From Escherichia phage vB_EcoM_WL-3, in the sequence record MT968995.1: a stretch of DNA of 64,000 nt. One strand, 5' to 3'. The notes under the pieces were generated by a model. That model was not told the origin of the DNA. It searched no databases and saw only the letters and a program-made list of their open reading frames with translations. The translations under genes and the position numbers were made by a program. Below are positions 7,436-63,741 of the stretch, piece by piece. Numbering within the stretch: position 1 is the stretch's first letter; each line of letters opens with the position of its first letter.

Positions 7436-7441
7436 AAACAA

Positions 7442-7459
7442 AGGGACCGAAAGGTCCCT
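7442..7459. terminator. Bidirectional terminator hairpin between gene 24 (+) and rnlB (-)
   Basis: AGGGACC-GAAA-GGTCCCT hairpin flanked by A/T runs on both sides. Confidence 0.65.
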
Positions 7460-7465
7460 TTTTAT

Positions 7466-10920: not shown

Positions 10921-12432
10921 ATGACTGACATTAAAGTACATTTTTATGATTTTAGTCACGTGAGAATTGATTGTGAAGAAAGTACATTTCATGAACTCCG
11001 TGATTTCTTTAGCTTTGAAGCTGATGGGTATCGTTTTAATCCGAAATACAAATATGGTCACTGGGATGGACGAATCCGTCTTTTAGATTATAATCGCCTT
11101 CTTCCGTTCGGCTTAGTCGGGCAAATTAAAAAGTTCTGTGATAACTTTGGCTATAAAGCCTGGATTGACCCACAAATTAACGAAAAAGAAGAATTATCAA
11201 GAAAAGATTTTGATGAATGGCTTTCTAAATTAGAAATCTATTCAGGAAATAAAAGAATTGAACCGCACTGGTATCAAAAAGATGCAGTGTTCGAAGGATT
11301 AGTTAATCGTCGTAGAATTCTTAATCTTCCAACATCCGCAGGTAAATCTTTAATTCAAGCTTTGCTTGCACGTTATTATTTGGAAAATTATGAAGGTAAA
11401 ATTCTTATCATTGTTCCAACAACTGCTCTGACAACTCAGATGGCTGATGACTTTGTTGACTATCGTTTATTCAGTCATGCAATGATAAAGAAAATTGGTG
11501 GTGGAGCATCAAAAGATGATAAATATAAAAATGATGCACCAGTCGTTGTTGGTACATGGCAAACTGTAGTAAAACAACCAAAAGAATGGTTCTCACAGTT
11601 TGGAATGATGATGAATGATGAATGCCATCTTGCCACAGGAAAAAGTATTTCATCTATCATATCAGGTTTAAATAACTGCATGTTCAAATTTGGTCTATCA
11701 GGTTCATTACGTGATGGCAAAGCTAATATCATGCAGTATGTTGGAATGTTTGGTGAAATATTTAAGCCAGTAACGACTTCTAAATTAATGGAAGATGGAC
11801 AAGTAACTGAGTTAAAAATTAATAGTATTTTTCTTCGCTATCCTGATGAGTTCACTACTAAATTAAAGGGAAAAACTTACCAAGAAGAAATAAAAATTAT
11901 TACTGGGCTCAGTAAAAGAAATAAATGGATCGCTAAATTAGCTATTAAGCTTGCGCAAAAAGATGAAAACGCTTTTGTCATGTTTAAGCATGTATCACAT
12001 GGTAAAGCTATTTTCGATTTAATTAAAAATGAATACGATAAAGTTTATTACGTATCAGGAGAAGTTGATACTGAAACGCGCAATGTAATGAAAACCTTAG
12101 CTGAAAACGGTAAAGGAATAATTATAGTAGCTAGTTATGGTGTATTTTCTACTGGTATTTCAGTTAAAAATCTGCATCACGTTGTTTTAGCGCACGGCGT
12201 TAAATCTAAAATTATTGTATTGCAAACAATAGGTCGTGTATTACGTAAGCATGGTTCTAAAACAATCGCAACGGTCTGGGACCTCATTGATGATTGCGGT
12301 GTTAAGCCAAAATCTGCTAATACGAAAAAGAAATACGTTCATTTGAACTATCTTTTAAAACACGGCATTGATCGTATTCAGCGCTACGCAGATGAAAAAT
12401 TTAATTACGTAATGAAAACAGTTAATTTATAA
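10921..12432 (+). CDS. uvsW: UvsW DNA/RNA helicase (SF2)
   Basis: 503-aa ORF with Walker A (PTSAGKS) and DECH box motifs; matches T4 UvsW. Confidence 0.92.
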   Translation: MTDIKVHFYDFSHVRIDCEESTFHELRDFFSFEADGYRFNPKYKYGHWDGRIRLLDYNRLLPFGLVGQIKKFCDNFGYKAWIDPQINEKEELSRKDFDEWLSKLEIYSGNKRIEPHWYQKDAVFEGLVNRRRILNLPTSAGKSLIQALLARYYLENYEGKILIIVPTTALTTQMADDFVDYRLFSHAMIKKIGGGASKDDKYKNDAPVVVGTWQTVVKQPKEWFSQFGMMMNDECHLATGKSISSIISGLNNCMFKFGLSGSLRDGKANIMQYVGMFGEIFKPVTTSKLMEDGQVTELKINSIFLRYPDEFTTKLKGKTYQEEIKIITGLSKRNKWIAKLAIKLAQKDENAFVMFKHVSHGKAIFDLIKNEYDKVYYVSGEVDTETRNVMKTLAENGKGIIIVASYGVFSTGISVKNLHHVVLAHGVKSKIIVLQTIGRVLRKHGSKTIATVWDLIDDCGVKPKSANTKKKYVHLNYLLKHGIDRIQRYADEKFNYVMKTVNL

Positions 12433-13643: not shown

Positions 13644-14042
13644 TTATACTCTATTACTAGAAGCCAGTTGCAGTTTTATCTGCTCAATATCATCAGGGTT
13701 ATCGATGACCGAAAAGCGTATTTCTACTATAAGAGTATAATCATCATAAACTGGTATTACATTAACTGCTAATTTATCAATACGTGGCTCGTAGTTTCTT
13801 ACTGCGCTTTCAATGTTACGCTCAACGGTATCAGCAGTAAGAGGAGTCATATTCTCAAAAAGTTGATCAGATAAATCGCATCCAAATTCTGGGTCAAATG
13901 GTCTTGACCCTTTTCTGGTTGTAATAATTCCCAAAAGGCTATTTTTAATTGACCTTAATCCAAGAGATCTAGAAACATCTTTGTCCCAATCCATTTTCAT
14001 TTCTGGGTCAATGTCAGAATAAAGCTTATTAATATTTGCCAT
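13644..14042 (-). CDS. 25: Baseplate wedge protein gp25
   Basis: 132-aa ORF; TAATG overlap with gene 26 as in T4. Confidence 0.9.
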   Translation of the reverse strand: MANINKLYSDIDPEMKMDWDKDVSRSLGLRSIKNSLLGIITTRKGSRPFDPEFGCDLSDQLFENMTPLTADTVERNIESAVRNYEPRIDKLAVNVIPVYDDYTLIVEIRFSVIDNPDDIEQIKLQLASSNRV

Positions 14043-14668
14043 TACAATAGCTCAAAGAATTCTTTGAGTCCTCTTATTACATGAGCGTGAGATTTTCCAC
14101 ACTCTGGACATTTAATTGGAACAGCCAAATAAACAGTAGGCTTTAAAAGCATATCTTTTATAGCTACAATATCTGACTCTGTGATGATAGAATATAAATC
14201 TTCCAACTCTTTTTCATTTAAGTCTTCAATTGGAATGCTTTCACCGTTAGCATGAATCGTTTCTATACATGATACTATCATGTGGGCTATATTTTTATCA
14301 TCAAAAATTTTAGGGTAATGGAACTTAATTTTAATGTCACCCAGTGTATACCAGAGGTCTTCTGGTGCATCTATTTGTGTATGTAATAGATTTATATGGG
14401 TTGGTATTTCAGTTCCACAGGTGCACTTCCAGGAGTTTTCGTGATTAACTTCTCCAAGAGAATGTGCCCATAAATGAATCAGCAGTAGTTCTGATTCTTG
14501 GCGGTTTAAATCTTTTGCATTTGTACAGTCTTTAATTAGCTTTTTAACGATCTCTTCTACTGAACCGTTCTTTTTAGCAGTAATAAGTTCTAGATATTCT
14601 TTAAGAGTAAATGCACGACAGTTGATTATTTTAGAACCAACTCTCACATCAAATTTGTATTCATACAT
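14042..14668 (-). CDS. 26: Baseplate hub assembly protein gp26
   Basis: 208-aa ORF in the expected position and length. Confidence 0.88.
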
Positions 14669-20958: not shown

Positions 20959-20961
20959 CAA

Positions 20962-20981
20962 TGGGGACCGAAAGGTCCCCA
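20962..20981. terminator. Terminator hairpin between gene 54 (+) and the minus-strand alt cluster
   Basis: TGGGGACC-GAAA-GGTCCCCA hairpin followed by tgtttttatt. Confidence 0.7.
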
Positions 20982-20986
20982 TGTTT

Positions 20987-36554: not shown

Positions 36555-37051
36555 AAAGTTTTAATAACCTCTATAATATCGTCTTGAGAAAGACCGTTAA
36601 TTAAAATATGATGTTCAGCCGGAGATTTAGAAATTTTAAAGCATGCCTCAACATCTTCTGCCATATCCGATGCGCTACGATTTGGATTACTAATTCCAAG
36701 ACGATGTTTTCCCGTTAAAGGATTAACGATGATATAGCATTTACAGTTGTTAATATGAACATTAGGTTGAGTCTGATTAATGAACACATCGCAATCATAT
36801 TTCGCAAGCTGATTTTCTAAAAAGACTTTCATCTCCTCAACCGCATCAGGAAGCATATCACGGGCTTGCTCAAGACGACGATTTCGATATTCTTTAATGG
36901 TCGTTTTCCGCTTGACTTGCTTAGCTAAATCTTTCTTAAGATCGGTGATATATCCAACTCGACGATTTCCTTTAAATACAGAAATCCCATCTGTAGTATC
37001 ACCGTATGCTTCAACGACCATTTCAGTAGTAATAAGCTGCAAATCCATCAT
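36545..37051 (-). CDS. alc: Alc, inhibitor of host transcription
   Basis: 168-aa ORF (167 aa from the second Met), length and position match T4 Alc. Confidence 0.85.
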   Translation of the reverse strand: MMDLQLITTEMVVEAYGDTTDGISVFKGNRRVGYITDLKKDLAKQVKRKTTIKEYRNRRLEQARDMLPDAVEEMKVFLENQLAKYDCDVFINQTQPNVHINNCKCYIIVNPLTGKHRLGISNPNRSASDMAEDVEACFKISKSPAEHHILINGLSQDDIIEVIKTLCN

Positions 37052-37079
37052 AAAGTCCTCATGTTATGTCAGTAAGACT

Positions 37080-37109
37080 ACTATAACACAACACGAGGGA
37101 CTTGTAAAC
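37080..37109 (-). promoter_or_regulatory. T4 early-type promoter (GTTTAC-N18-TATAGT) for alc
   Basis: Minus-strand GTTTACAAGTCCCTCGTGTTGTGTTATAGT; about 50 bp near-identical to the cassette at 21278-21338. Confidence 0.6.
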
Positions 37110-37112
37110 AGC

Positions 37113-38700
<1,588 letters not shown>

Positions 38701-38705
38701 AATAA

Positions 38706-38719
38706 AATGGGCCTTGCGG
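38706..38719 (-). promoter_or_regulatory. Hairpin between the Shine-Dalgarno (AAGGAG) and the denA start codon
   Basis: Minus-strand AAGGAGT-GGGCC-GCAA-GGCCC-ATTTTATT-ATG; the stem-loop would bring the SD close to the AUG. Confidence 0.55.
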
Positions 38720-38727
38720 CCCACTCC

Positions 38728-39906
38728 TTAAAAGTATTTTTTAAAACTCATCATAACTTTATCATCAACATCATTATCAATCTGTGCAACAAGATAAGAT
38801 GACAGTTCTACTTCTTGTGGCGCTGATTGAACATTATCAGAATTAAGATATTCACGAATCCAAGGATATGGATGTTTAACCGGAGCATCGGTAATTGGGC
38901 ATGGAAGACCACACTGTTTCATACGAGATACAGTTAAGTAATCAATAAAGCTCCACATGCTATTTGTATTTAATCCAGGAACATCGCCATCTTTAAATAA
39001 ATGAACTGCCCAATCTTTTTCTTGGCGGTTAACTTCCATGAAAATATCAACTGCTTCTTGTTCACACTCTTGAGCAATTTTAACCCATTGATCGCCATCA
39101 GTACCAGATTGAAGTTGACGAATAATATATTGTGTACCTTTAAGATGAAGCTGCTCATCACGTGCAATAAATTTCATAATCTTCGCATTACCTTCCATGA
39201 TTTCCATGTTCTTATGGAAGTTGAAAGTACATGCAAAGGATACATAAAAACGAATAGCTTCCAGAGCATTGATAACGTGCAGACAGAGATAAAGCGACTT
39301 CATTAGCTCACGCTTCCAATATGTCTCATGCTCAATAGCATCTTCAATAACGTCTTCGTCTGCATTAATTTCTTTTTGGTATTCGATATCAGCTTTAGCG
39401 TTTTCCCAATAACGAGTTTTAATCAGAACATCATCATAATAACGTCCAATGGATTCAGCACGTTTCATAATAGCTTCATCTAATACAATTTCATCAAATA
39501 CCTTCGATGGATCAGTATAAAGATTTCGCATGATATGAGTATATGAACGACTGTGAATAGTTTCACTAAAAGTCCATGTAGCAACCCATGTATCAAGGCT
39601 TGGGTCTGAAATTAATGACATAAGTACAGCAGATGGCGCGCGACCCTGAATGCTATCTAAAAGTGATTGATACTTCAAGTTGTTAGTAAAAATATTTTGC
39701 TGATACTGAGGAAGCTTATTAAACTGTGCAGCATCCATCATCAAGTTTACTTCTTCAGGACGCCAGAAAAATGATAATTGCTTTTCGGTTAAATCTTCAA
39801 AAACTTTATGACGTTGAATATCATAACGCGCAATACCAAGACCTGAACCAAAAAACATAGGTTCTTTTAAAACGTCAACTGGATTTGTATTAAAAACTGT
39901 GCTCAT
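38728..39906 (-). CDS. nrdB: Ribonucleotide reductase small subunit (intron-less)
   Basis: Continuous 392-aa ORF with no interruption. Confidence 0.92.
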   Translation of the reverse strand: MSTVFNTNPVDVLKEPMFFGSGLGIARYDIQRHKVFEDLTEKQLSFFWRPEEVNLMMDAAQFNKLPQYQQNIFTNNLKYQSLLDSIQGRAPSAVLMSLISDPSLDTWVATWTFSETIHSRSYTHIMRNLYTDPSKVFDEIVLDEAIMKRAESIGRYYDDVLIKTRYWENAKADIEYQKEINADEDVIEDAIEHETYWKRELMKSLYLCLHVINALEAIRFYVSFACTFNFHKNMEIMEGNAKIMKFIARDEQLHLKGTQYIIRQLQSGTDGDQWVKIAQECEQEAVDIFMEVNRQEKDWAVHLFKDGDVPGLNTNSMWSFIDYLTVSRMKQCGLPCPITDAPVKHPYPWIREYLNSDNVQSAPQEVELSSYLVAQIDNDVDDKVMMSFKKYF

Positions 39907-39957
39907 AAATTTTCCGCTTAGTTAATAGTTGGTGACTCGTCCGTGAGTCAAATTATA

Positions 39958-42222
39958 TCATAATTTACAGGATGAACAATCTTCAGCTTTTGGAGTTTCT
40001 ATTTCATAATCATCAGTACCAGAACCATCGCGGGTATTATGATAATAGAAATTTTTTCCGCCAAAATACCAAAAATACAAAAGGTCATCAATCATTATTG
40101 ACATTGGAACCTTTCCTTTAGGGAAGATTTGGGGGTCATAGTATGTATTCGCTGAAGCTGATTGACATACCCATTTCAGCATAATAGCTACTTGCGTAAG
40201 ATAAGGTTTATTACCTTTCTTAGCTAATTTCCATGTATAATCATAGAGGTCTATGTTATGCTCAATATTGGGCACGACTTGATTAAAGGAACCCTCTTTT
40301 GATTCTTTAACACTTACCGGTCCACGTGGAGGCTCGATACCGTTTGTACTGTTAGAAACTTGGGAAGATGACTCACATGGCATAAGTGCTGATAATGTGC
40401 TATTACGGATGCCAAAGAGCTTAAGGTCTTCCCGCAGCGACGACCAGTCACAAACGTATTTTGGAGCTGCGATTTGGTCAATCTTTTTATTGTACCAGTC
40501 GATAGGTAATTCGCCTCGAGACCAACGAGTGTCTGAATAATATTCGCAAGGTCCTTTTTCTTTGGCGAGCTTAATGGATGCTTTAATGAGTCCATACTGT
40601 AATCTCTCAAATAGTTCATGTGTTAAATCGTTAGCATCTTCATAAGAAGCAAAGTTACTTGCCAGCCAAGCTGCATAGTTAGTAACACCTACACCAAGGT
40701 TACGACGCCTTTTAGCTTTTTCTGCTTCAGGAACTGGATATCCTTGGTAATCCAAAAGATTATCAAGAGCACGAACTTGGACTTCTGCCAATTCATTAAT
40801 TTTATCTTGGTCTTGCCAATCGAAGTTATCCAACACAAATGCAGATAACGTGCACAATCCAATTTCAGCATCAGGGCTATTCACATCATTTGTTGGAATA
40901 GCAATTTCACAGCACAAGTTACTCTGACGAATAGGTGCCTTTTCACGAATAAACGGAGTATAGTTATTCGTATTATCAATGAACTGCACATAAATCCTTG
41001 CTGTTCCTGAACGTTCAGTCATGAGCAATTCAAATAGTTCACGGGCTTTAATACGCTTTTTGCGAATATTAGGGTCTTTTTCTGCTGCTTCGTATAATTC
41101 ACGGAAACGGTCTTGGTCTTTAAAATAAGAATAATAAAGCTCGCCACCCATTTCATGCGGACTGAACAAAGTAATGTAATCGTTCTTTCCGAATCGTTCC
41201 ATCATCAAATCATTCAGCTGAACACCATAATCCATATGACGGATACGGTTTTCTTCTACACCTTTGTTATTTTTCAAAACGAGAAGATTTTCAACTTCCA
41301 AATGCCAAATAGGATAATAAGCAGTAGCAGCGCCGCCACGAATTCCACCCTGTGAACATGATTTAACAGCAGTCTGAAAATGTTTCCAAAAAGGAATAAC
41401 GCCAGTATGACGTACTTCACCTGTGCCAATCTTAGAACCTTCAGCACGAATCATACCAACGTTAATGCCAATTCCAGCTCGTTTAGAAATATACTCAACA
41501 ATTGAAGCAGAAGCCTTATTAATAGACTTTAATGAATCACCTGCCTCAATAACAACACATGAACTAAACTGTCGAGTTGGAGTACGACAACCAGCCATAA
41601 TAGGAGTTGGCAGTGAAATCTGTCGAGTGGATACTGCTTCATAAAAACGGATAACGTGTTTTAATCTATCAACAGGTTCATCTTGATGCAATGCCATTCC
41701 AATAGTCATAAATGCAAACTGTGGAGTTTCATAAATTTGACCAGTGGTTTTATCTTTAACAAGATATTTTTCTTTTAATTGCATCGCCCCGGAATAAGTA
41801 AATTCCATATCCCGCTCGTGCTTAATTTTTGATTCTAAAAATGTAATTTCTTCTGCAGAATATTTTGACAACAATTCAGGGTCGTATTTACCTTCATTTA
41901 CACAGTAAGAAATATGGTCAATAAATGAACGCGGTTCATATTGCCCATAAACATGCTTACGAAGAGCGAACATTAAACAGCGTGCAGCTACGTATTGATA
42001 ATCAGGCTCTTCAACTGAAATAGAATTCGCAGCAGCCTTAATTACAATGGTTTGAATGTCATCAGTTGTCATTCCATCACGGAGATATGATTTAATATTT
42101 TCATATAATTCATAAGGATCTACTGATGTTCCTTCAGCTGCCCAAGATAAAACTTTAATAATTTTTTGTGGGTCAAAGCTCTGAGAAACACCACTACTTT
42201 TGATAACATTAATTAATTGCAT
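39958..42222 (-). CDS. nrdA: Ribonucleotide reductase large subunit
   Basis: 754-aa ORF, same length as T4 NrdA. Confidence 0.95.
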   Translation of the reverse strand: MQLINVIKSSGVSQSFDPQKIIKVLSWAAEGTSVDPYELYENIKSYLRDGMTTDDIQTIVIKAAANSISVEEPDYQYVAARCLMFALRKHVYGQYEPRSFIDHISYCVNEGKYDPELLSKYSAEEITFLESKIKHERDMEFTYSGAMQLKEKYLVKDKTTGQIYETPQFAFMTIGMALHQDEPVDRLKHVIRFYEAVSTRQISLPTPIMAGCRTPTRQFSSCVVIEAGDSLKSINKASASIVEYISKRAGIGINVGMIRAEGSKIGTGEVRHTGVIPFWKHFQTAVKSCSQGGIRGGAATAYYPIWHLEVENLLVLKNNKGVEENRIRHMDYGVQLNDLMMERFGKNDYITLFSPHEMGGELYYSYFKDQDRFRELYEAAEKDPNIRKKRIKARELFELLMTERSGTARIYVQFIDNTNNYTPFIREKAPIRQSNLCCEIAIPTNDVNSPDAEIGLCTLSAFVLDNFDWQDQDKINELAEVQVRALDNLLDYQGYPVPEAEKAKRRRNLGVGVTNYAAWLASNFASYEDANDLTHELFERLQYGLIKASIKLAKEKGPCEYYSDTRWSRGELPIDWYNKKIDQIAAPKYVCDWSSLREDLKLFGIRNSTLSALMPCESSSQVSNSTNGIEPPRGPVSVKESKEGSFNQVVPNIEHNIDLYDYTWKLAKKGNKPYLTQVAIMLKWVCQSASANTYYDPQIFPKGKVPMSIMIDDLLYFWYFGGKNFYYHNTRDGSGTDDYEIETPKAEDCSSCKL

Positions 42223-63736: not shown

Positions 63737-63741
63737 TAAAA

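Follow-up and report, generated by a model that had tools for sequence, protein, structure and literature searches.

Candidate structure-bridged ribosome binding sites at gene 25 and denA of a T4-like phage

Two genes of a Tequatrovirus, gene 25 and denA, appear to start from structure-bridged (split) ribosome binding sites, a reading of both sites that we hold at a probability of about 0.6. The two sites were studied in one 64,000-nt stretch of DNA, hereafter the window, in which both genes lie on the minus strand. The linear distance between the Shine-Dalgarno sequence (SD) and the start codon would be too long at either site (27 nt at gene 25, 23 nt at denA), with a stable hairpin filling the spacer. 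Once this hairpin is folded, the single-stranded path from SD to AUG would measure about 7-9 nt, so that a 30S subunit could engage both together. Each site combines an SD more than about 15 nt from the start with a looped-out spacing within roughly 5-13 nt (9 nt for gene 25 and 7 nt for denA), and neither has a conventional SD 3' of the hairpin. Compensatory stem changes were found for denA and, more weakly, for gene 25, and the denA motif matches that of a validated member, T4 gene 38. The split sites treated in a review of the subject are those of genes 38 and 25 only (PMC3014915), and for the function of these two sites in T4 we rely on that literature.

Gene 25 (13644..14042, minus strand) is a 132-aa open reading frame annotated as baseplate wedge subunit or gp25 in matching phage records. 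Upstream of it lies gene 26 (14042..14668, minus strand), a 208-aa open reading frame for a baseplate hub protein according to the matching records. The gene 26 stop codon UAA (14044-14042) shares one base with the gene 25 AUG (14042-14040), and the SD and hairpin of gene 25 sit within the 3' end of the gene 26 coding sequence, the hairpin in the stretch encoding ...GLKEFFELL*. On the minus strand the SD reads AAGAGGA (14075-14069), with its GAGG core at 14070..14073. It is followed by a 7-bp hairpin (14051..14068) made up of CUCAAAG (14068-14062), the loop AAUU (14061-14058) and CUUUGAG (14057-14051), in DNA letters CTCAAAG / AATT / CTTTGAG. An 8-nt tail, CTATTGTA (14050-14043), leads to the start codon, tail and codon together (CUAUUGUA plus AUG) occupying 14040..14050; we looked for an SD between hairpin and AUG and found none. 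The gap from GAGG to AUG is exactly 27 nt, of which 9 nt (1 + 8) remain when the hairpin is looped out. Stem pair probabilities were 0.95-0.99 in a 103-nt context, and the C at 14050 lets RNAfold add a G-C and a G-U pair that use the last two G of GAGG.

This site is a natural variant of the published T4 split-SD site and is, as such, already known. The window is about 94% identical to T4 across genes 26-25; GAGG stands at the same position, and the 7-bp stem, the 27-nt raw spacing and the UAAUG stop-start overlap are the same. The window differs from T4 by five changes, all outside the stem, namely C to A after GAGG, AGUU to AAUU in the loop, and three tail bases. For the T4 site, lacZ fusions, DMS probing and a 38-phage phylogeny are available, with a spacing that falls from 27 to 11 nt on folding and translation that is lost when the stem is destabilised (PMC3014915, citing Nivinskas 1999 and Malys & Nivinskas 2009). 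In T4, at gene 25 as well as at gene 38, stem-destabilising mutations lower translation and the structure has been seen by probing (PMC3014915). A first-pass annotation of this DNA had placed the gene 25 SD about 27 nt from the AUG across a 7-bp hairpin and had recognised the T4 arrangement; the coordinates bear out the first statement to the nucleotide, and the shared GAGG, stem and spacing bear out the second. Across 13 relatives, 96.7% of stem cells are paired, and one pair switches from C-G to U-A in 4 of the 13. Covariation is modest (2 of 7 pairs, 5 cells; score 0.216 against 0.156 in shuffles, reached in 3 of 500) and is confounded by the position of the stem in coding sequence.

The second site, denA (38290..38700, minus strand), is a 136-aa open reading frame for endonuclease II, the product of which is 100% identical to DenA of the T4 record X04140. 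It follows nrdB (38728..39906, minus strand; 392 aa), which is uninterrupted in the window, unlike the T4 nrdB coding sequence with its two joined pieces. The nrdB stop codon is itself part of the denA SD: UAA (38730-38728) is fused to AAGGAG (38729-38724), the two together spanning 38724..38730. The duplex of this SD with the 16S 3' end has an energy of -8.7 kcal/mol, compared with a median of -5.6 for gene starts in the window. Next comes a 6-bp hairpin (38708..38723) consisting of UGGGCC (38723-38718), the GNRA loop GCAA (38717-38714) and GGCCCA (38713-38708), or TGGGCC-GCAA-GGCCCA in DNA letters of the minus strand. It is followed by the 7-nt U-rich tail UUUUAUU (38707-38701) and the AUG (38700-38698), together 38698..38707. 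The raw spacing from AAGGAG to AUG is 23 nt, the nrdB stop lies 28 nt upstream, and looping out the hairpin leaves 7 nt; in the window the tail is not complementary to the anti-SD (duplex energy +2.8 kcal/mol). The first-pass annotation gave the sequence and anatomy of this site correctly, while its range of 38701-38724 omits five of the six SD bases.

All stem pairs at denA have a predicted probability of 1.0, and folding z-scores were -2.29 over 81 nt and -4.45 over 37 nt, compared with -1.43 and -2.61 for gene 25. Folding returns both of the stems that had been proposed, and RNAfold extends the denA stem into its SD. The gene 25 stem further differs from that of denA in being AU-rich, in lying within the upstream coding sequence and in having no terminator-like tail. 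In a survey of the window, the other GC-rich tetraloop hairpins situated just before genes have their own SD 3' of the hairpin, and denA is the only one with the SD on the 5' side. Rfam returned no match at gathering threshold anywhere in the window, both sites giving only noise (E of 0.6 or higher). Two further candidates at the denA SD were rejected or judged unlikely. The in-frame GTG at 38724, which would yield a 144-aa reading frame, begins 0 nt after AAGGA and was discarded as the denA start; ATG or GTG at this position is sporadic in relatives, and in L008 and L012 it is out of frame. RegB is unlikely to cleave the GGAG of the denA SD, the required single-stranded stretch being the stem and GGAG being missing in many relatives; RegB needs about 11 nt of single-stranded RNA from GGA onward (PMC1702504).

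The strongest argument for a bridged denA site comes from comparison among relatives. The matches listed, a subset of the roughly 1,000 annotated phage genomes with denA, contain at least 28 distinct nrdB-denA junction sequences, from phages whose DenA is 58-99% identical to that of the window, and 27 hairpin-bearing junctions were analysed in detail. The order of SD, hairpin and tail recurs at nearly every nrdB-denA junction among these matches, and the 46-nt junction itself is identical in the window and T4 (L060, from X04140). In a 28-row alignment, 93.5% of stem cells are paired and four of the six pairs change on both sides (28 such cells). The resulting covariation score of 0.461 exceeds that of shuffles (0.164; 0 of 500 reach it) and of slid registers (at most 0.19). 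Being intergenic, the denA stem has a far better covariation record than the gene 25 stem. An AGG or GAG core stands 0-4 nt 5' of the stem in 27 of 27 junctions, and in none of the 27 does the tail carry an SD. Duplexes with the anti-SD average -6.3 kcal/mol for the upstream element, a value that just 2% of random 14-mers from the window reach, and +2.4 kcal/mol for the tails. Raw SD-AUG spacing is 21-29 nt across the 27 junctions and falls to 6-11 nt in 26 of them when the hairpin is looped out. Even where the stop codon has changed to UAG, in L069, AGGAG is retained.

Among the matches listed, this putative cassette is conserved in T4-like phages wherever denA comes directly after nrdB. As we picture it, it would comprise a UAA fused to AAGGAG, a hairpin with a GC stem of 4-7 bp (mostly 5-7) and a GNRA or UUCG loop, a tail of 6-10 nt and the AUG. 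The hairpin is absent from L027, which relies on an ATGA overlap, nrdB, denA and rnlA all being coupled in this way. The arrangement is also absent from the denA homologues of Krischvirus, Tulanevirus and Slopekvirus and from the 40-42% identical GIY-YIG reading frames L072-L076, none of which is adjacent to nrdB. One Krischvirus denA has a different gene upstream and a hairpin with a separate SD downstream of it.

A covariance model of the denA junctions (R1) matches the T4-type gene 38 site with 37 bits (E about 1e-4), over model positions 10-46, from the stop/SD through the AUG; it has no other full-length match in the 64-kb window. Because of this match we consider gene 38, and not gene 25, the closest analogue of denA, and the predicted denA element repeats the motif of the T4 gene 38 initiation site. 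In both, the UAA of the upstream gene is fused to AAGGAG and followed by a GC tetraloop hairpin and a 7-nt tail; at the T4 site, located at the gene 37-38 junction, the hairpin is capped by C(UUCG)G and the tail leads to AUGAAA. The anatomy of the T4-type gene 38 site, TAAGGAGAGGGGCttcgGCCCCTTctgaatATG, and of a Karamvirus-type denA junction, TAAGGAGAGGGCCttcgGGCCCTTctgttATG, is essentially identical. On folding, the T4 gene 38 spacing falls from 22 to 5 nt (PMC3014915), compared with 23 to 7 nt at denA. The two sites differ in context, gene 38 being a late gene of tail-fibre assembly and denA a prereplicative gene of nucleotide metabolism and nuclease function, and in detail, with a UUCG loop in gene 38 and GCAA or GUAA in Tequatrovirus denA, where the tail is also more U-rich and more terminator-like. 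Moreover, the T4 gene 38 site has been characterised by experiment, while a literature search turned up no experiment on denA translation. The earlier likening of denA to gene 25 thus holds for the bridged layout, which the comparative data strengthen, but not for the choice of closest relative. The window's own gene 38 is of the T2/T6 adhesin type and has an ordinary site.

Could both arrangements be coincidences of an AT-rich genome that play no role in initiation? When all 975 candidate start codons of the window were scanned for an SD, a hairpin, 4-11 nt and the start, exactly two sites matched, gene 25 and denA. Shuffled upstream regions gave 2.1 matches on average, so that the pattern alone is not enriched in a single genome. 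The folding z-score of gene 25 in its 81-nt context and the fact that its stem codes for a conserved peptide also fit a chance origin. Both matches, however, fall on real gene starts, where about 0.2 would be expected (about 91 reading frames of 80 aa or more), and chance accounts poorly for the strong denA stem covariation, for a spacing kept across diverged relatives and for the T4 experiments on genes 25 and 38 (PMC3014915). Coincidence is already disfavoured, and we consider it highly improbable; the support for the bridged sites is comparative and does not come from single-genome frequency.

A spread of the cassette to unrelated phages was a further candidate. We searched IMG/VR with the pattern TAAGGA-N0-4-GGNCTTCGGNCC-N5-11-ATG and, as a control, with TAACCA replacing TAAGGA. 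The pattern matched 101 sites, many of them at real gene junctions of unrelated phages, but the control matched 69, among them members of the same gene families with hairpin, short tail and ATG in place and no SD. Real junctions numbered 56 for the pattern and 23 for the control, and once T4-like denA and gp38 loci were removed the comparison was an estimated 32 or so against 23. The control having failed, we rejected this idea. The unrelated contigs without an SD also illustrate that a hairpin near a start codon is by itself no proof of a bridged SD.

The extension of the denA stem that RNAfold predicts, and which the first-pass annotation had left out of account, bears on how the SD might be used. 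If G-U and A-U pairs between GGAG and the U-rich tail lengthened the hairpin, the SD would be hidden, and the structure would act as a repressor that keeps endonuclease II low. Minimum free energy and centroid structures of the window indeed pair GGAGU with AUUUU in a 10-bp helix of -16.4 kcal/mol, the ensemble probabilities of being unpaired for the four bases of GGAG (0.28, 0.11, 0.08 and 0.01) would hinder use of the SD, and a nuclease such as DenA may plausibly be needed in small amounts only. No pair of the extension, however, varies on both sides, 12 of 28 rows leave column pair 17-37 unpaired, and most non-Tequatrovirus junctions are unable to form the extension; a conserved SD-covering helix was not found, the extension being predicted in Tequatrovirus-type sequences only. 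Any purine-rich SD facing a U-rich tail would give such apparent pairing, and at about -4.8 kcal/mol the extension is weaker than the SD:anti-SD duplex (-8.7 kcal/mol). The gene 38 site, which is positive in experiments, is predicted to be similarly part-occluded, and the prediction of occlusion therefore does not discriminate. In the absence of covariation support, sequestration of the SD by an extended helix was rejected, and we regard it as improbable. The inhibitory hairpins of T4 gene e and I-TevI likewise control translation through RNA structure in the initiation region, but there the SD or AUG lies in a conserved stem and is freed by a transcript starting inside the structure (PMC3014915), while at denA the conserved stem lies between SD and AUG and the SD-covering extension is not conserved.

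The functional SD of denA could also be the AAGG within the hairpin itself (gcAAGGccc, in the loop and 3' arm, 11 nt from the AUG), used after the stem has melted. The T4 record X04140 (1986) annotates two candidate ribosome binding sites, the second of them in the hairpin, and our layout scan also flags this normally spaced SD-like 4-mer. Such an AAGG exists, however, only in Tequatrovirus with GCAA or GUAA loops, all lineages with UUCG loops lacking it and yet keeping the upstream AGG or GAG, and it is paired with a probability of about 1.0. As a sequence that is neither conserved nor accessible, being base-paired, it was rejected as the denA SD and has very little chance of being the one in use. 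Under the bridged reading that we prefer, denA would be translated from the upstream SD in a manner dependent on RNA folding.

A more substantial alternative, likewise not considered in the first-pass annotation, takes the denA hairpin mainly as a rho-independent terminator or 3' stabiliser of the nrdA-nrdB mRNA, with denA translated on the few read-through RNAs, mainly by termination-reinitiation from the nrdB stop, and with the hairpin neutral or inhibitory for denA initiation. The GC-rich stem, stable tetraloop and U-rich tail are those of such an element, and T4-like rho-independent terminators and intercistronic tetraloop hairpins share the GC-rich stem, the UUCG or GNRA loop and the U-rich tail; the denA hairpin is similar to others of this sort in the window. 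The denA tail scores -4.77, near the clear terminators of the window (-5.3 to -5.6), whereas hairpins preceding their own SD score about -2.3, and ARNOLD terminators are annotated in MK373786 and MK327943. The coupling by ATGA overlaps in L027, which has no hairpin, indicates that coupling alone can suffice; the hairpin with a separate SD further downstream at the Krischvirus denA, and the hairpins of other phages that precede a short tail and ATG and have no SD, point the same way.

A pure terminator nevertheless leaves unexplained why an AGG or GAG core precedes the stem in 27 of 27 junctions and a tail SD is found in none, and tails are poor in several relatives that keep hairpin, SD and spacing (-2.0 in L031/L032, -2.5 in L007 and -2.9 in L017/L019/L065). 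At gene 38, the identical motif reportedly enhances initiation (PMC3014915). A consensus terminator scan of the window gave 0 calls near denA; in our reading it misses the hairpin because the stem, extended by G-T pairs, consumes the T-run. In addition, the clear window terminators have longer stems (7-9 bp) and better T-runs and are followed by early-type promoters, while the denA hairpin has a start codon 7 nt on, belonging to a gene for which we recognised no other promoter. From the nrdB start to denA, no match to an early, middle or late promoter consensus was found, the next candidates being at 38289 and 37109, after denA. With no recognisable promoter of its own, denA depends on read-through of the hairpin, which makes efficient termination impossible and partial termination the most that can occur. 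We consider it unlikely, although not negligibly so, that termination and reinitiation account for the site without a bridged SD.

A hairpin with a stem of -11.6 kcal/mol and tail scores of -2.0 to -4.9 among relatives may still partly terminate transcription, and we infer that at denA it does. The structure would then probably also serve as a leaky intrinsic terminator or as a 3' stabiliser of the nrdA-nrdB mRNA; with leaky termination, only read-through transcripts would carry denA, and the nuclease would be kept low. We tentatively propose, as a possibility short of an even chance, that the nrdB-denA hairpin is dual-function, combining leaky termination or 3' stabilisation of the abundant nrdA-nrdB message with spacing of a bridged SD, such that a low DenA:NrdB ratio is set at two levels. 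As a portable module that gene 38 also carries, the element would be the third, previously unlisted, split site of T4-like phages. We found no statement on the denA initiation region in the literature, although older subscription literature could still contain one.

Of these findings, the gene 25 part adds nothing new, since it concerns a naturally occurring variant of a textbook site. The denA part, if true, would add a third structure-bridged SD to the two already described in T4-type phages and would make the gene 38 architecture a reusable cassette. Gene callers and ribosome binding site predictors confined to 5-15 nt upstream would find no SD for denA or would choose the in-frame GTG at 38724, and terminator predictors would annotate the end of an operon at the denA hairpin, even though no other promoter is recognisable for denA. 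The site may serve as a compact natural test case for how the 30S subunit accommodates a folded hairpin between SD and AUG, and for how one hairpin could serve both transcription and translation.

The genes around the two initiation regions, both on the minus strand, are annotated as expected, with baseplate hub and wedge (genes 26 and 25) at one site and NrdB and DenA (endonuclease II) at the other. For the 1.1-kb genes 26-25 segment, 499 phage records align at 90-99% identity, led by vB_EcoM_G50 (98.5%) and with T4 at 93.6%, which identifies the phage as a Tequatrovirus other than T4. At the protein level, its DenA matches that of the 1986 T4 record X04140 with 100% identity. The nrdB gene (38728-39906, minus) is one unbroken ORF of 392 aa and lacks the nrdB intron; in X04140 the CDS consists of two joined pieces because of a group I intron.

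At gene 25, the first-pass annotation had described a Shine-Dalgarno (SD) sequence about 27 nt from the AUG with a 7-bp hairpin in between, and had recognized the known T4 split SD. Direct reading bore out the quoted sequence exactly: GAGG (14073-14070) is followed by the stem CUCAAAG/CUUUGAG (14068-14062 and 14057-14051, loop AAUU), an 8-nt tail and an AUG (14042-14040) that shares one base with the UAA of gene 26, leaving a GAGG-AUG gap of 27 nt. T4 has the identical SD and stem, the five differing positions all lying outside the stem, and the site is published; the work of Nivinskas et al. 1999 and Malys & Nivinskas 2009 is covered in a 2010 review (PMC3014915). The gene 25 reading is thus correct, and already known. 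Stem pairing holds in 96.7% of cells across 13 distinct relatives, and one C-G pair is U-A in four of them, by way of a synonymous Leu change paired with a Glu-to-Lys change in gp26; covariation support is modest because the stem sits in coding sequence. The base directly 3' of the hairpin (14050, minus) is C here and U in T4, so that RNAfold adds a G-C and a G-U pair with a bulged A, reaching the last two G of GAGG (14069-14071 region, minus; P(unpaired) = 0.19). On this prediction, the gene 25 SD may be slightly more masked than in T4.

The denA sequence quoted in the first-pass annotation was likewise exact, but its range, 38701-38724, left out most of the SD bases. The nrdB stop UAA (38730-38728, minus) is fused to the SD AAGGAG (38729-38724), followed by the hairpin UGGGCC-GCAA-GGCCCA (38723-38708), the tail UUUUAUU and the AUG (38700-38698), with a raw SD-AUG spacing of 23 nt. 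We rejected a start at GTG 38724 (minus), which would have an SD spacing of 0 nt and an extension not conserved among relatives; the corresponding 144-aa ORF, with its GTG inside the SD/hairpin, was called because the ORF listing takes the first start after a stop. The T4 record names two candidate denA ribosome-binding sites, the first at the nrdB stop, the second an AAGG within the hairpin. We favor the first, since the hairpin AAGG is limited to lineages with GCAA or GUAA loops and is base-paired.

We then compared 42 DenA-relative loci from viral contigs, together with annotated phage records, which gave an alignment of 28 distinct nrdB-denA junctions, 27 of them taken through detailed analysis. 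Wherever nrdB directly precedes denA in the fetched relatives, the same layout was found: a stop codon running into GGA, a gap of 0-4 nt, a GC stem that is usually 5-7 bp long (range 4-7), a tail of 6-10 nt and the AUG. Most lineages close the stem with UUCG, Tequatrovirus with GCAA or GUAA; UUAG, UUUG and CUUGA are rare. The 46-nt junction is identical between the window and T4. Across the 28 sequences, the 6-bp stem core is 93.5% paired, and two-sided changes occur at four of six pairs (28 cells). The covariation score of 0.461 compares with 0.164 for column shuffles, none of 500 attaining it, and with at most 0.19 for slid registers. Raw SD-AUG spacing is 21-29 nt in all analyzed junctions and becomes 6-11 nt in 26 of 27 when the hairpin is looped out. 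Pairing energies between the 16S 3' end and the element 5' of the stem average -6.3 kcal/mol (-8.7 in the window); real gene starts in the window have a median of -5.6, and a value of -6.3 is attained by only 2% of random 14-mers. The tails of the analyzed junctions show no such pairing (mean +2.4). In locus L069, AGGAG is kept although the stop is now UAG. What carries the denA case is the SD core, invariant 5' of the stem, together with a spacing that is conserved. In Enterobacter phage KMB17 (L080, 1608-2222) and Serratia phage 92A1 (L081, 1614-2222), a homing endonuclease gene lies between denA and rnlA (gene 63), downstream of an intact nrdB-denA cassette.

The first-pass annotation had assigned denA the same architecture as gene 25; conservation supports the anatomy, but the closest known element is gene 38. 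As at denA, the T4-type gene 37-38 junction (TAAGGAGAGGGGCttcgGCCCCTTctgaatATG) joins the upstream stop to the SD; a C(UUCG)G hairpin, a tail of 7 nt and the AUG follow. According to the 2010 review, folding at gene 38 shortens the spacing from 22 to 5 nt, and a weaker intervening structure gives less initiation (PMC3014915). A covariance model trained on denA junctions alone matched the T4-type gene 38 site from stop/SD to AUG (37 bits, E ~1e-4). The denA site therefore agrees with this class in every feature that defines it at the sequence level. In the 64-kb window, the model found a full-length match at denA only, other hairpins matching solely in the stem-loop part, with E > 0.05. Gene 38 of this phage (59372-59402, plus) is of the T2/T6 adhesin type with an ordinary initiation region, in which GGAG lies 3' of the hairpin AAGGGGC-ttt-GCCCCTT and 7 nt ahead of the ATG. 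This phage thus lacks the classical T4 gene 38 split SD but carries its motif at denA. Among the intercistronic hairpins compared, only that of denA has its SD on the 5' side. Of the other GC-rich tetraloop hairpins, those at 12431, 59372, 46966 and 29465 each have a separate SD and then an ATG on their 3' side, and those at 63737, 47327 and 30346 lead into a long T-run and a promoter of early type. The latter (63737-63716, 47327-47309 and 30346-30327, minus) are strong terminator-like hairpins of 7-9 bp with the tail TTTTTATTT and an early-promoter-like GTTTAC-N17-TAnnnT within about 30-50 nt beyond, and apparently mark the borders of transcription units on the minus strand. Two more hairpins, at 7440-7461 and 20961-20982, appear to be bidirectional.

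The denA hairpin could also act in transcription. Its tail is U-rich, with a terminator-type score of -4.77, compared with -5.3 to -5.6 for clear terminators and about -2.3 for hairpins preceding an SD in the window, and in two public records the hairpin is annotated as an ARNOLD-predicted terminator. Tails are poor (down to -2.0) in several relatives that keep hairpin, SD and spacing. Early, middle and late promoter consensus sequences were all absent from the nrdB start to denA, the next candidates, MotA-type at 38289 and early-type at 37109, both lying past denA. Transcription of denA must therefore run through the hairpin, and, together with the poor tails, this means that any terminator must be leaky. 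From these features, a role as leaky terminator or 3' stabilizer is likely, as an addition to bridging rather than an alternative. A consensus terminator scan of 37000-40500 returned zero sites, an output that calls for caution: the hairpin fits the scan's stated terminator definition if the 6-bp Watson-Crick stem is used, and in our reading the T-run was consumed by a G-T stem extension. The element TGCTTCCA-N12-TACTAT (38289-38259, minus), right after the denA stop and ahead of rnlA, resembles a MotA-dependent middle promoter; the rnlA SD is ordinary (AGAGGA, 7 nt 5' of the ATG at 38237).

The helix may also mask the SD, since RNAfold lengthens it over GGAG in the window and predicts a mostly paired SD in naked RNA. 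Compensatory changes are absent from this extension, and many relatives cannot form it. It contributes about -4.8 kcal/mol, where the SD:anti-SD duplex is worth -8.7, and has a counterpart in similar predicted occlusion at the validated gene 38 site. Such masking may dampen translation in Tequatrovirus, but it is not the conserved feature. Termination-reinitiation coupling with nrdB stays a live alternative, because in the T4-like contig L027 (IMGVR_UViG_2974786931_000001) nrdB, denA and rnlA are coupled via ATGA overlaps (1440-1512 and 1880-1912) with neither intergenic hairpin nor SD. The hairpin is dispensable in this one lineage, and the contig, as a natural hairpin-less variant, is a useful comparison for hairpin-bearing junctions.

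Folding of both minus-strand 5' regions, a check proposed in the first-pass annotation, returned the hairpins, with z-scores that are weak as single-sequence evidence (gene 25, -1.43 in 81-nt and -2.61 in ~36-nt context; denA, -2.29 and -4.45). Scanning 975 candidate starts of ORFs of at least 50 aa in the window for SD, hairpin, 4-11 nt and start gave two matches, precisely gene 25 and denA. Shuffled upstream regions gave a mean of 2.1, so the layout is not enriched in this genome; both matches are at real gene starts, where ~0.2 would be expected from ~91 long ORFs. Single-sequence statistics being weak, the weight of the case lies in these real starts and in the comparative and published evidence.

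We considered a cassette module widespread across unrelated phages. A pattern search of IMG/VR gave 101 matches, many of them at real gene junctions of unrelated phages, some with tails that had no U-run. A control with the SD replaced by a non-SD hexamer undid this idea: it gave 69 matches, including hairpin plus ATG without SD in the same gene families, and with T4-like loci removed we estimate ~32 junction matches versus 23 in the control. The claim is accordingly confined to T4-like nrdB-denA and gene 37-38 junctions. The control also shows that a hairpin near a start codon can occur without a bridged SD. In several small-ORF families of uncultured phage contigs in IMG/VR (L184-L252 and L083-L162), starts lie 5-11 nt past a C(UUCG)G hairpin with or without an SD ahead of it. 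These families are MAYS..TI..IG.APKTLGNQLGRW (92 aa), M.IYL.H..HG.K.A (61-82 aa) and MFDDLNEDNFVMYA (128 aa).

In the 2010 review, genes 38 and 25 are the only structure-enhanced sites listed (PMC3014915), and our literature search found no mention of denA as one, though older sources may contain it. With its anatomy well supported by conservation, denA fits best among the gene 38-type bridged SDs, as a new member whose function we infer and which likely has a second role in transcription. We give a probability of roughly 0.6 to the combined explanation of the two sites. It takes a mechanism that is already known a modest step further, and may be of some help in annotation and as a compact model for experiments.
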